A stretch of DNA of 64,000 nt, taken from NCBI RefSeq assembly GCF_009834535.1, contig NC_045696.1, positions 80,416,001-80,480,000 on the forward strand, written 5' to 3'. The notes below the pieces were generated by a model. That model ran no database searches and had not been told where the DNA came from. It saw only the letters and a list, made by a program, of their open reading frames with translations. A program made the translations under genes and the position numbers. Positions 8,790-60,992 of this stretch are shown here, in pieces (the stretch's first letter is position 1; every line of letters begins with the position of its first letter). This DNA comes from Camelus ferus (taxonomy: Eukaryota).

Positions 8790-9285
8790 GTGTGTGGGCA
8801 TAACTGCATTCTACTCAGACATAAAAAAGAATGAAATTCTGTCATTTGCAACAACATGGATGAACCTGGAGGTTATTATGCTTAGTGAAAAAAGTTAGAA
8901 AAAGACAAACACTGCATGTTATCACTTATATGCGGAATCTGAAAAATAAAACAAACAAATAGAACAGAACAGAAATAGGCTCACAGATACAGAGAACCAA
9001 CTGATGGTTGAATGGGGTGAGTAGAGTGGGGAGGGGCAAGAGAGGGGTAGGGGATTAAGAAGTACAAACTACTACTATGTACAAAATGAATAAGCTCCAA
9101 GGATATATTGTTCAGCACAATGAATATAGCAGACACTTTTCCAATAACTTTAAATGGAGGACAATCTATAAAAATTTTGAATCAGTTGTACACTTGAAAC
9201 TAATACTGTAAGTCAACTATTCCTCAGCTAAAAAATCACTATGGAACTAACAACACTGTATGTCAACTATATTTCAAATAAGTAA
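8790..9285 (+). mobile_element. L1 3' end fragment (L1MA/laurasiatherian type)
   Basis: Contains ataaaaaagaatgaaattctgtcatttgcaacaacatggatgaacctggaggttattatgcttagtgaa, a hallmark L1 ORF2-end/3'UTR motif, and ends in gaaactaatactgtaagtcaactat plus an A-rich tail. Confidence 0.88.
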
Positions 9286-20129: not shown

Positions 20130-20188
20130 CTGTGGTTTCTCTATTCCCGAAAGAATGTCTTGCACCCTCTTTACTTCCAACTCATACT
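20130..20188 (-). CDS. FNDC3B: FNDC3B small coding exon (~exon 7, 59 nt), (E)YELEVKRVQDILSGIEKPQ
   Basis: Absent from the ORF track; read by hand as ttttgccatgcag|AG TAT GAG TTG GAA GTA AAG AGG GTG CAA...CCA CAG|gtatgt. Phase 1 to 0 fits both neighbours. Confidence 0.96.
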
Positions 20189-32016: not shown

Positions 32017-32411
32017 TGTTATTAGCTGAATTGTGCTCCCCCCAAAATCCATGTATTGAAGTCCTAACCCCAAGCACCTCAGAACGTGACTGTATTTGGC
32101 AATGGAGTCTTTACAGAGGTAATTAAATTAAAATAAGGTCATAATGTTGGGCCCTATTAATGTTCTTATAAGAGGAGAAAATTTAAATAACAGACACACA
32201 GAGAGGGAAAGATGATGTGAAGACAATGGGAAAAATAGGCCATTGACAAGCCAAGGAGAGAAGCCTGAAACAGATTCTTTCCTCATGGTCCCCAGAAGGA
32301 ATAAATCTCGCACAGACTTACGGCCTCTGGAACTATGAGAAAATAAGTATCTGTTATTTAAGCCACCCAGTTTGTGGTAATTTGTTATTATAGCCCTAGT
32401 CATTTAATACA
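32017..32411 (+). mobile_element. MLT1 solo LTR (MLT1A/B-like), full length
   Basis: TG...CA ends: tgttattagctgaattgtgctccccccaaaatcc...aagccacccagtttgtggtaatttgttattatagccctag...aataca; 395 bp long. Confidence 0.9.
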
Positions 32412-34609: not shown

Positions 34610-34872
34610 TTTTGTTTTTATTGAAATATAGCTGATTTACAATTATTATATTAATTTCAGGTGTGCAACAGTGATTCAGTATTTTTACAGATTATATCCA
34701 CTAGACGTGGACATAACAACAAGATAACGGCTATAACTCCCTGTGCCATACATTATACACTTGCTGCTTATCTATTTTATACATAGTAGTTGATATCTCT
34801 TAATCCCATACCCCTAACTTGCCCCTTCCGCCTTCCATCTCCTCACTGGTAACCATTTATTTGTTTTCTCCT
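34610..34872 (-). mobile_element. L1 3' end fragment, reverse orientation
   Basis: A T-rich tail followed by attgaaatatagctgatttacaat...aatttcaggtgtgcaac...ctataactccctgtgc...ctcactggtaaccatt...ttgttttctc. Confidence 0.85.
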
Positions 34873-53694: not shown

Positions 53695-53782
53695 CTTGCA
53701 AGTCTGAGTCATTCGACTTGGGGCTGCTTCTGGCTCTGCGCTCCGCCTTCTTAACGCCGGGCCCGCCGCCGCTGCCGCCTCC

Positions 53783-53820
<38 letters not shown>

Positions 53821-54000
53821 CGTGGCCCTTCCCGTAGCCGTTGTACACGGTCGTGCAGCTGCTCTTGTAGATAGAAGAAGGCGGGCTGTTGAGGCGATTC
53901 TGCCGGTCAATCTGGCGATCTTTCAGCTTTTTGTGCGGAGGCTTGCTGTACTGGTCCTCTCGGGTGATGTAACTCGACATTCCATAGAGTGGTATAATTT
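53695..54000 (-). CDS. FNDC3B: FNDC3B internal coding exon (~exon 6, 306 nt), (E)IIPLYGMSSYITREDQYSKPPHKKLKDRQ...G16-S-GGGPG...SNDSDLQ
   Basis: Acceptor ttcgctttag|AAATT and donor CAAG|gtaatg; phase 1-1. It continues the frame of the upstream exon and matches FNDC3B. Confidence 0.97.
53762..53821 (-). repeat. Coding GGC trinucleotide repeat: (GGC)8 GGT (GGC)4 GGA (GGC)2 AGC (GGC)2 GGG
   Basis: Counted directly from the (gcc)n run on the plus strand inside exon 6. Confidence 0.97.
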
Positions 54001-56986
54001 CTAAAGCGAAGATTATGACAAATACAAGTTCAGTCTACATTTTCAATAATAAATTATTAAATGGTCAAGCGACCTGACTCCCGAAGGAAGAAGTTTAACA
54101 TATTACTAAATACAATATAAAAAACATTAAGAAAACGATATGCATATTATACATTTAAAATATCCCTATTCATTTCTAACCAATAAAGGAATAATTAATC
54201 ATTAAAAGACTATACTGTATGTTCAGAAATGTTCCAGAAATTATGGAAAATACTGAAGACAAGATTACTGTCCACCAGAAGTTCATATTTTAGCTGAACA
54301 TGTAACTAAGTTTGATTTTGCCTATCAATTGTTTTTAGTAATTGCAATAAATCAAAAAAACAATTAGAATAAAATATCTCCTTAAATAATGTGTTTTTAG
54401 AATTGAGATACTTAAAAGTACTCTCATCCTTATGCACAGAATAGCACTTTTATTGCAAAGTACTTAACAACCAAAATATCATGAGGTCTCTGTGCCATGA
54501 AGAAGAGCCAATTGAGCAAAACCTACTCAAATGAGATGAGAAATTTCCATTTACAGTAATCGATGCTCACAGAATCAGAGGAGATGTTTAAGGAGAACTT
54601 ATTGGTAAATATAAGCCATCTCTGCAACCTGGTGCCAAGCATAATAATCTATGGTCTGAAACCTCTATGCACATTTTTAAGTGGCTCAAAAGAAAATGGG
54701 AGCTTGCAGAGTTATCTCACGCTCTTAGGGGAAAATGTTTAAAAATCTTAAGCAATTAAAAATTATATTTAGACAATAAAAATGACAATATGTAACACAG
54801 ATAATGGGTCTTAACATGTTTATAAGAAGAAAATGCCCTACATGCACAGAGTGACCATATAAATTACCATCTAAACCTGAGTACCTCTGAGGGTGATTAG
54901 GGAGCACTCCTAATTATTTCTCTGAACAAGAGACCTAACCCAGTACTGGCCTAGGCACACCAGGAATGCATGCTCACCCTATGTAACGGATGTTTTCAAT
55001 TGTTCACTTTTCATTTTCTTTCTGGTCATACAGCTTGAGGAAGATCTTTAAAAAGCAAATCTTTACAGGATAACCAATTTGCACAAGAGAAACACAGCCC
55101 TATTCAAAGAGTGCGTGCCCAAATAAATTATATTTAAACATATAAAAAGAATGGTAAAGGCTTTAAATATCACAATGCATTATACTTGAGATTTAAAATA
55201 TTCACCATGGGGACCAATATAATAATCTTTTGAAACATCAAGAACTTTTAAAACTCATACAGTTTGGGAAATTAAATGTTTAAATTGCTTTTAGGTGTAT
55301 GAACATTGAGAACTAAGCTAAGAGAATATATAAATGGCTTTTATTTATAAAGCAAAGGATTTTTGTTTTCTGCTTTCTTTAATTTGGAATCAATGAAGGC
55401 ACTTAATTGTACATTATTGCTGTGTTATTTTAATGAAATTAAACCACAATAACCTGTTAAATGAAGACAATTCTTTTTTTTTTTTTTTTTTTTTTTGCTT
55501 AACTCTAATGATGATTTAAATCATATTGTTGTCTAAAATTGCAAAGGACACCATTCACAAAACAGTAACTGTAGGGCATCCGCCTAAAAGACTGCTAAAA
55601 TGAGGCAAGTCAGACTTTCTTCATCCGGCAATGAGTCACCAGCCAAGGCTTTTCACAATGTCACTGAAATCAGACCCAACCCAACCAGATCCAAGCTCCA
55701 ACAAATGCTCAAGTATTTAATGTGTACTGTGTCAAAGTACTGAATACTTTTTAAAAAATTAGTTAATTAACTGAATTTTTTGTTTTTATCCAAATGGTTT
55801 CATGGAAGATGCCCACTCTCCGATGTTTTAAAGTGTTATGATACTAGGTAAGACTAGAGAGGCAGGAAGTTATCGATGCCTCTATTAAAGTACTGGTTTC
55901 ATCTTTTGCTATCATCTTGCCACATCCTCTTATAACAGCACCTCATTCTTCTGAATTATAGTAAATTTCTTTCTAATGACTACTACAGAAAAGTCAAATT
56001 CTATCCCCAAGTTACAAAGGGATATAGGGTATTTCACCTAAAATACCCATCTCAAATTTTTCTCTTGTTAATAAGAAAAACATCCAATGGGATTTGAACA
56101 TACAGGGGGAAATGCATATATATATACATGTAAAATATTTAAGAGAAAGTGAGGTGGTAACTTCCTCCAAAACTAACAGGCATTTCTCTCTCTTACAATT
56201 TATCTGTAAACCAACATAATAAATGTTTTTGAAACAATAAAACACTTCAATTCACAGAAGAAAATCACTTTGTAAAGTCCTAGAGGTTAAAATCTCAGTT
56301 TCCATTTTGATAGAGAAGGGCTTCAGACTAAACTAACACCAAGGCCAAAACTAAAAAGACATAATGCCGGTATCTCTGAGACTCTTTTTCATTTCAAGGT
56401 AAGTATTTGCCTAACAACCAGTGGACTGTGGCTGCACTAATGGCTATCCTTAAACTAAAAAACAGGGTTCAGGAAGACCACGTCAACAGTGCAGGGATTT
56501 TGAGTTCTGCCAAGATTGCAACAGAGCATCCAGGAAACCCAGAGGTGACCGAGACCTCAGTCTTCTATCATTGGAAATGGGGCACAAAGCCCTTTTCACG
56601 TTCCCTTCTACTGCGAGACCACGTGGATGCCTCAGAAGCAACGCGCTGCAGGCTCTACCCCAGGCCGCTCTCACATAAAAATGTTAACAGGACATGGGAA
56701 CAGATGATAGATTACTGCCTCTTTTCTGAAACAAAAAGTGGCTAACCTGTTCCCTGCTCTCTGTGGGGTGGGACAGGGGGCAGAAATTGGGAAAATATAA
56801 AGAAAGAGCTGCAAGACACAATTCAGAACAAAAGAAGCTAGGAATTTCCCATGAGTTTTTTATACAGCAGGTGGATACTCTTCTACCATGCTTGTTACAG
56901 AAGAAACAAAGGGCTCTCTGGTTCTCTTAAGCCACTTAAGTGTTGTGACCAGTTCCAACAGCCCCTGATACCAGCAATCTTCTCAC

Positions 56987-57230
56987 CTTGCTCGCCATAT
57001 ATTGTAGGGGGAAGATGATGTTGAGGAAAAAACTGAGGCGGCATATCTCCAGGTCCAGTAACAGGTGGGTAGTAAGCCGTGTGTGAGTTGTGAATAAAAT
57101 GCGGATGGTGAGTCAGGTAGGGGGGTAGGTGATGGGTTGGAGACATGGCCGAGGGGTAGCTTGGCGGGTAACACTCAGGAGACTGGGGGGTGACCACCAC
57201 CCGGCGGACGCCGGTATTGTCCTCAATCAC
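56987..57230 (-). CDS. FNDC3B: FNDC3B internal coding exon (~exon 5, 244 nt), VIEDNTGVRRVVVTPQSPECYPPSYP...HHLPPTIYGEQ
   Basis: The translation matches the FNDC3B Pro/His-rich N-terminal region as recalled. On the minus strand the acceptor is ttttcttcag|GTGATT and the donor is CAAG|gtgaga. Phase 0 in, phase 1 out. Confidence 0.97.
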
Positions 57231-60620: not shown

Positions 60621-60992
60621 CGTATGGACTGACTTATGTACCTCCCTCCCTGCCCCCACCAGTTCATATATTTAAGTCCAAACCCCCAGTAACTCAGCAT
60701 GTAACTGTATTTGAAGATAGCATCTTTAAAGAGGTAATTATGGTAAAATGAGGTCATATGGGTGGGTCCTGCTCCAGTATCACTGACATCGTTACGAAAA
60801 AAGGAAGGACGCAGACAGGCAGAAGGAAGGTCATGTGAGGACACCAAGGGAAGAAGGCCATCTAAGAGCCAAGAAGAGGGGCCTCAGAAGAAACCAAAGT
60901 TGCAGCCTCCAGAATCATGAGGAAATAATTTCTGCTGTTTAAGCCACCCAGTCTTCGGTACTTTGTTATGGTAGTCCAAGCAAATTAATACA
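60621..60992 (+). mobile_element. MLT1A-like solo LTR
   Basis: tatggactgacttatgtacctccc...gaggtaattatggtaaaatgaggtcatatgggtggg...aagccacccagtcttcggtactttgttatgg...taataca, flanked by a near-identical 5-bp target-site duplication ccacc/cctcc. Confidence 0.9.

Follow-up and report, generated by a model that had tools for sequence, protein, structure and literature searches.

The stretch at positions 53695 to 57230 of the window, the whole 64,000-nucleotide stretch of Camelus ferus DNA that was analysed, quite probably holds an ordinary camelid pair of FNDC3B exons (exons 5 and 6) that would back-splice into a circular RNA (circRNA), and the open reading frame (ORF) spanning the back-splice junction is best understood as a passenger of the host gene. 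The pair is the camelid orthologue of an exon pair known to form a circRNA, and no new biology is shown in the genome itself. Both the reality of circRNA-encoded proteins and the selection acting on them are disputed, and the human product circFNDC3B-218aa is a much-cited case. The natural ACG codons described here at the human start sites, together with two mammals that carry a forced stop and 23 that have no fallback ATG, make a small comparative argument against a conserved 218-aa protein. If the ORF is a passenger under host-protein selection only, the N-terminus of the human 218-aa protein is not a conserved mammalian product, and the camelid circle, if it has a role, is more likely to act as RNA.

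The exon pair and the predicted circle

The host-gene features of the window are the following:

56987 to 57230, minus strand: FNDC3B exon 5 (human numbering), 244 nt, AG/GT borders, starting in phase 0; it would supply the back-splice acceptor
54001 to 56986, minus strand: intron between exons 5 and 6, 2986 nt, GT..AG ends
53695 to 54000, minus strand: FNDC3B exon 6, 306 nt, AG/GT borders, ending in phase 1; it would supply the back-splice donor
20189 to 53694, minus strand: downstream flanking intron, 33.5 kb
20188-20130, 12462-12311, 8193-8134 and 258-120, minus strand: four further FNDC3B exons, through which the frame continues without a stop

In the protein search with exon 6, FNDC3B was the gene of every match bearing a gene name among the best 120 of 213. 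When all six exons are taken together, the named protein that matches best, out of the 120 compared, is the dromedary P0002, identical at 318 of 326 residues. Exon 5 agrees with it at 82 of 82 residues; seven of the eight differences fall in exon 6, the site of a difference in the glycine linker, and the eighth lies within a 23-residue match running across an exon border. Host gene, exon pair and canonical splice sites are those of human circFNDC3B (hsa_circ_0006156; exons 5-6, 526 nt), the circle to which circFNDC3B-218aa is ascribed in the available parts of PMC7114813 and PMC6766960. An earlier, sequence-only reading of this DNA had called the locus orthologous to that circle, rightly so, and had given it a size that the exon borders bear out: when constructed from the DNA, the exon 6 donor joined to the exon 5 acceptor gives a circle of 244+306 = 550 nt, which leaves a remainder of 1 on division by 3. 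Exon 6 has a GC3 of 0.75 and a CpG observed/expected ratio of 1.11, compared with 0.26 in the window.

The same exon pair circularises in human (PMC7114813) and in mouse (PMC6754461), according to the accessible parts of both papers, and because both species make the circle, a camelid circle is taken as likely. Both flanking introns are long, as they are expected to be for circFNDC3B, at 33.5 kb downstream and at least 6.8 kb upstream. By analogy, then, exons 5 and 6 probably back-splice in camelids. It is unlikely that the circle is absent from camelids, in which case exons 5-6 would be purely linear and every circle ORF hypothetical. Consistent with such an absence, no significant inverted match was found between the flanking introns when the visible 6.8 kb upstream was compared with the 33.5 kb downstream (best minus-strand E = 0.19), the two strong matches between these introns being direct repeats; self-comparison of the 64 kb returned only three repeat pairs; and the literature matches listed, 3 of 3 in one search and 20 of 312 in another, include no report of a camelid circFNDC3B, although livestock circRNA supplementary tables could hold one. 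RNA sequencing runs that contain the stretch exist; of 24 runs listed, 20 contain at least half of its words, which speaks neither for nor against the circle. Against it stand the human and mouse circles and the length of both introns, and the greater part of the upstream intron is beyond the window.

Several further observations concern the repeats and exons of the window. With only three repeat pairs in 1-64000, no young SINE family is evident. Six SINE start motifs of 9-11 nt gave no match. The introns on either side of the exon pair carry two old dispersed repeats, 32036-32411 and 60650-60992, that are 76-78% alike and share one orientation; we take them to be LTR-like. Another pair, at 9029-9205 and 34649-34829, consists of inverted old repeat fragments that are 71% alike and flank the exons at 20188 and 12462, not exons 5 and 6. 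A CpG-island-like patch lies within the coding exon at 53751-54000 (30 CpG in 250 nt, observed/expected 1.2, window 0.26), and GC3 falls to 0.20-0.35 in two later FNDC3B exons. A circle of 716 nt carrying an ORF of 257 aa would result from FNDC3B exons 6-10, within 120-54000; for human, the available part of PMC11129431 reports that an FNDC3B circle of 746 nt, described as 'exon 6 to 11', encodes 267 aa.

The junction-spanning frame and the host protein

The elements of the ORF, in the order in which the circle is read from the open stretch of exon 6, are the following:

53695 to 53922, minus strand: stop-free +1 frame of exon 6, 76 codons, open to the donor
53839 to 53841, minus strand: ACG at circle position 404, site of the first human ATG; third base of a host Asn codon (AAC)
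53833 to 53835, minus strand: ACG at circle position 410, site of the second human ATG; third base of a host Tyr codon (TAC)
53774 to 53821, minus strand: 16-codon glycine repeat, the host Gly linker (GGC x8, GGT, GGC x4, GGA, GGC x2), Ala-rich in the +1 frame
53752 to 53754, minus strand: host Val-Lys, the single site between 404 and the junction able to give a +1 stop; here TTA
53710 to 53712, minus strand: ATG at circle position 533, in host Asn-Asp; the sole +1 ATG after the last stop, feeding the junction
57223 to 57225, minus strand: TGA at circle nucleotides 6-8, ending the ORF on the second pass; same position in human

The last +1 stop before the open stretch is a TGA at 53925-53923. 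An ORF begun at the ATG of position 533, which has a weak context (C at -3, A at +4), is 191 aa long and one begun at the first ACG is 234 aa long, and both end at the TGA of nucleotides 6-8. The sequence-only reading had described an exon 6 +1 frame without stops from about 53920 to the donor (it is open from 53922), ACG at both sites, a product of 191 aa from the first true ATG or 234 aa from an ACG start, and an ORF that crosses the junction into the normal FNDC3B frame before its TGA; its numbers are all right. None of the 73 short database proteins listed contained the junction motif or the motif at the ORF end, which is a weak search for such short contigs. No Pfam domain is listed for comparable fragments, and the predicted product is of low complexity.

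Selection on a second protein is not needed for the open frame, the context of the ACG codons or the frame switch. A +1 stop requires a Leu, Ile, Val or Met codon whose last base is A or G, followed by a codon beginning with A or G; four such pairs occur from host codon 107 onward, only Val-Lys among them falling between 404 and the junction, and pairs that could give a +1 stop are almost absent from the Gly/Ser/Arg-rich end of exon 6. Under a null in which synonymous codons were redrawn 20,000 times for each of five GC3 settings, the frame was open from 404 in 0.49-0.51 of trials and an ATG-fed ORF of at least 191 aa was present in 0.40-0.79. A survey of all 21 circles possible from the six exons in the window found a junction-crossing ATG ORF of at least 191 aa in 8/8 circles above 500 nt, and 4/13 shorter circles were without any. 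Since exon 5 begins in phase 0 and the end of exon 6 is in phase 1, the exon 6 +1 frame joins the host frame at the junction. The context of the first ACG (A at -3, G at +4) is likewise forced: each base occupies the middle position of a host codon, Tyr for the A and Gly for the G.

Strong Kozak bases and the open frame were considered as signs of selection and rejected, since both follow from host residues. The term 'rewired ORF' in the sequence-only reading was an overstatement for the same reason, the open frame, Kozak bases and frame switch being set by the host protein and the exon phases.

Some observations weigh against a passenger ORF. The +1 frame is open from position 323 (76 codons), which the recoding null reproduced in only 0.10-0.14 of trials. 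Three features are retained in human as well as in Camelus ferus: an open Val/Ile-Lys site, the ATG near the junction and the stop at nucleotides 6-8. The probability of each is 0.17-0.60 under free recoding, and shared ancestry also explains the retention. Two human papers, as far as their available parts go, report a 25-kDa tagged product (PMC7114813, PMC6766960), and one of them reports two peptides identified by mass spectrometry (MS) (PMC7114813).

Human circFNDC3B and other mammals

The accessible text of PMC6766960 places the human start at position 404, gives the ORF as 657 nt and puts its stop at nucleotide 8 of the second pass, and the human construct in supplement 2 of PMC7114813 begins with two ATGs. 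The human database protein has an Asn codon at 135, so that position 404 is the same site in human and Camelus ferus, and 41+175+2 = 218. The earlier derivation of 218 residues as this sum, from an ATG within human AAT GGC TAT GGG, is thus confirmed by the two papers and the human protein. The predicted camelid circle has ACG at both 404 and 410, where the human product requires an AUG, and its +1 frame is open to the junction with the stop at nucleotides 6-8 of the second pass, as the human product also requires.

DNA was compared for two species only, human and Camelus ferus; the human construct and the window were read by eye, and the alignment is unambiguous for 37 codons, which run from position 403 to the donor. 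Third bases differ in 13/37 codons, with A/T in the human sequence and G/C in the camelid one in 13/13 (p = 0.0002); 2 of these 13 are the ATG/ACG sites. Each third-base change hits the middle base of a +1 codon, so that the +1 residues change: over the 37 codons, 13/37 residues differ in the +1 frame and 3/37 in the host frame (p = 0.01), with identities of 65% for the +1 peptide and 92% for the host frame. In exon 5, which lies outside the overlap, third bases differ in 19/81 codons, 13 of them toward G/C, 5 toward A/T and 1 neither. Synonymous divergence between human and the window is not reduced in the overlap (13/37 vs 19/81, two species, by eye; Fisher p = 0.19), and the trend is in the opposite direction.

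In the human comparison, the ACG sites belong to a one-directional A/T-versus-G/C third-position difference across the exon, and the loss of the human start codons looks like a side effect of silent host-gene changes. GC-biased change (or CpG decay on the human side), under host-protein selection only, may have led to the ACGs, and repeat slippage under the same selection to the longer Gly linker and its double reading as Ala and Gly. Both ACG sites are CpG here, so a gain of the human ATGs by CpG decay is as open as a camelid loss. What had been called an 'ATG to ACG start loss' is therefore right as to the ACG at both sites, and not as to 'loss', since the change is unpolarised between two species.

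The human model has weak points of its own, judged from the available parts of the papers. The reported internal ribosome entry site (IRES), at +448 to +524 (PMC7114813), is downstream of the very start, at 404, that it is meant to serve, and the N-terminal peptide found endogenously does not span the junction. On the linear mRNA here, the same +1 frame closes five codons into exon 7, so that such an N-terminal peptide could come from a short linear ORF. The controls described for the human construct are an empty vector and a start mutant, an ATG-to-ACG change used as the untranslatable control, and that account includes no back-splice-dead vector (PMC7114813). A back-splice-dead vector is what bioRxiv 10.1101/2020.12.10.418848 asks for, with vector concatemers and MS false discovery as known pitfalls; a discussion of FNDC3B was not met in the accessible part of that preprint.

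Species other than human and Camelus ferus were judged from protein, which shows whether a codon is possible or forced, not the actual codon. We scored 92 proteins out of 256, one per named mammal, leaving out isoform duplicates, unnamed rows, non-mammals, a cattle hybrid, a porpoise model breaking off in exon 6 and a divergent tamarin. Sites able to give a +1 stop after the human start number one in 80/92 proteins, none in 3 and two in 9. The +1 TGA is forced, by Met-Lys, in 2/92, the annotated protein models of tree shrew and Sturnira; as Met-Lys must read TGA, the 218-type ORF is impossible in both species if the models are right. The alternative frame is thus not intact across the species surveyed, contrary to what a dual-coding exon under selection would show. 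The +1-frame stops across mammals that the sequence-only reading had named as evidence against its proposal do occur, in this limited form, and its view of the locus as a natural test of whether the circRNA protein is conserved was sound, the ACG here counting against a conserved 218-aa product. The length of the +1 segment tracks the linker, at 40-47 residues in the surveyed mammals and 49 here. The matches listed, which are not exhaustive, hold no report on cross-species conservation of the circFNDC3B ORF, and the available parts of PMC12062398, PMC11129431 and PMC9924128 do not address it. The tamarin protein, P0175, is a divergent FNDC3B-like sequence of 208 aa with many scattered changes, possibly from a processed pseudogene.

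The survey also bears on whether the conserved product is instead a short one, in which the near-junction ATG would give 191 aa (183 in human), a soluble N-terminal FNDC3B fragment with a 6-residue leader. This ATG is common to human and Camelus ferus; the human junction peptide begins at the near-junction Met, and the human IRES, downstream of 404, overlaps the near-junction ATG (both from the available parts of PMC7114813). The Asn-Asp needed for it is present in 62/92 mammal proteins. Of the 30 without Asn-Asp, 2 are non-placentals and 5 carry a different ATG-capable pair close by. The other 23, out of 90 placentals, cannot have an ATG after the linker; they comprise 13 muroid rodents, 9 mustelids and the star-nosed mole. 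Mouse and rat are among these 23, and the mouse circle is documented in the accessible part of PMC6754461. The codon also stands in a weak context, and because the near-junction Met is preceded by Arg, the human peptide is tryptic and no start marker. The human FLAG lies just past the junction and is reported, in the available part of PMC7114813, only with unmutated constructs, so there is no reported signal from the near-junction ATG unless that was also mutated. A conserved short product is improbable on this evidence, and a passenger ORF remains our preferred explanation.

The glycine repeat and known systems

The longest Gly run is 16 residues here and 3-11 in the 92 other mammal FNDC3B proteins, and it is a candidate length-polymorphic coding repeat in camelids. 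In the dromedary protein (P0001/P0002), the linker reads 9 Gly and then AAEAA, which is the +1 reading of the same DNA; it is probably a pair of compensating frame errors in the model, the other option being a real 14-codon allele. The repeat can be read as both poly-Ala and poly-Gly because a GGC run is Gly in one frame and Ala in the next. This double reading needs a start upstream of the repeat, which from the ATG is read once; the human ORF likewise reads its own linker twice. The earlier claim of poly-Ala plus poly-Gly from one repeat is correct as a reading of the frames, but the 234-aa product needs an ACG start, the change that was translation-null in the human study (PMC7114813, available part).

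It is highly unlikely that the ACG pair initiates on the circle, aided by a hairpin of the GGC repeat in the manner of FMR1, to give 232-234 aa with the repeat as poly-Ala and poly-Gly. Each ACG has a purine at -3 and G at +4, their first bases lie 20 and 14 nt before the start of the repeat, and the 60 nt behind them are predicted to fold at -32.9 and -32.6 kcal/mol, close to the most stable value on the circle, whose median is -9.2; such a value is expected of any GGC run. In the available part of PMC5666671, non-AUG initiation gains from a hairpin about 14 nt downstream, and in FMR1 an ACG before the CGG repeat serves as a start. The context bases, however, are forced by the host Tyr and Gly codons, and ATG to ACG was a null in human cells (PMC7114813). 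Moreover, FMR1 initiation is cap- and scanning-dependent (PMC5666671) and involves 55-200 repeats (PMC7155420), as far as the accessible parts of these papers go, whereas the circle would have 16 codons and no cap. A fuller scenario, in which the camelid starts changed to ACG as the repeat lengthened to 16 Gly codons and placed a hairpin at a rescuing distance for a 234-aa product, seems to us equally far-fetched. If it were true, the 234-aa circle protein would be a natural cap-independent counterpart of repeat-assisted non-AUG translation.

Among known systems, human circFNDC3B is alike in gene, exon pair, phases, position 404, the frame switch at the junction and the stop at nucleotides 6-8, and the near-junction ATG is common to both. 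The Camelus ferus circle differs in its 550 nt, with 8 more linker codons, in having ACG at both upstream ATGs, in 13/37 aligned +1 residues and in being predicted from DNA. Camelus ferus thus naturally carries the kind of change used as the human null. Mouse circFndc3b is described as the orthologue of the human circle, with 86% identity, and acts via FUS binding (PMC6754461, available part); it has Ser-Ser-Asp where Ser-Asn-Asp stands here, and so no near-junction ATG.

FMR1 (FMRpolyG/FMRpolyA) shares the near-cognate ACG in good context just upstream of a structured GGC/CGG repeat that gives Gly or Ala by frame. Its expanded repeat and cap-dependent scanning have no parallel here, where the repeat is short (16 interrupted codons), in a coding exon, and on a circle without a cap, and the likeness is one of resemblance only.

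The FNDC3B overlap resembles dual-coding exons such as GNAS XLalphas/ALEX and CDKN2A INK4a/ARF in that an alternative frame stays open for a long way through GC-rich coding sequence of low complexity. Unlike them, it is without synonymous suppression and without conservation of the alternative frame.
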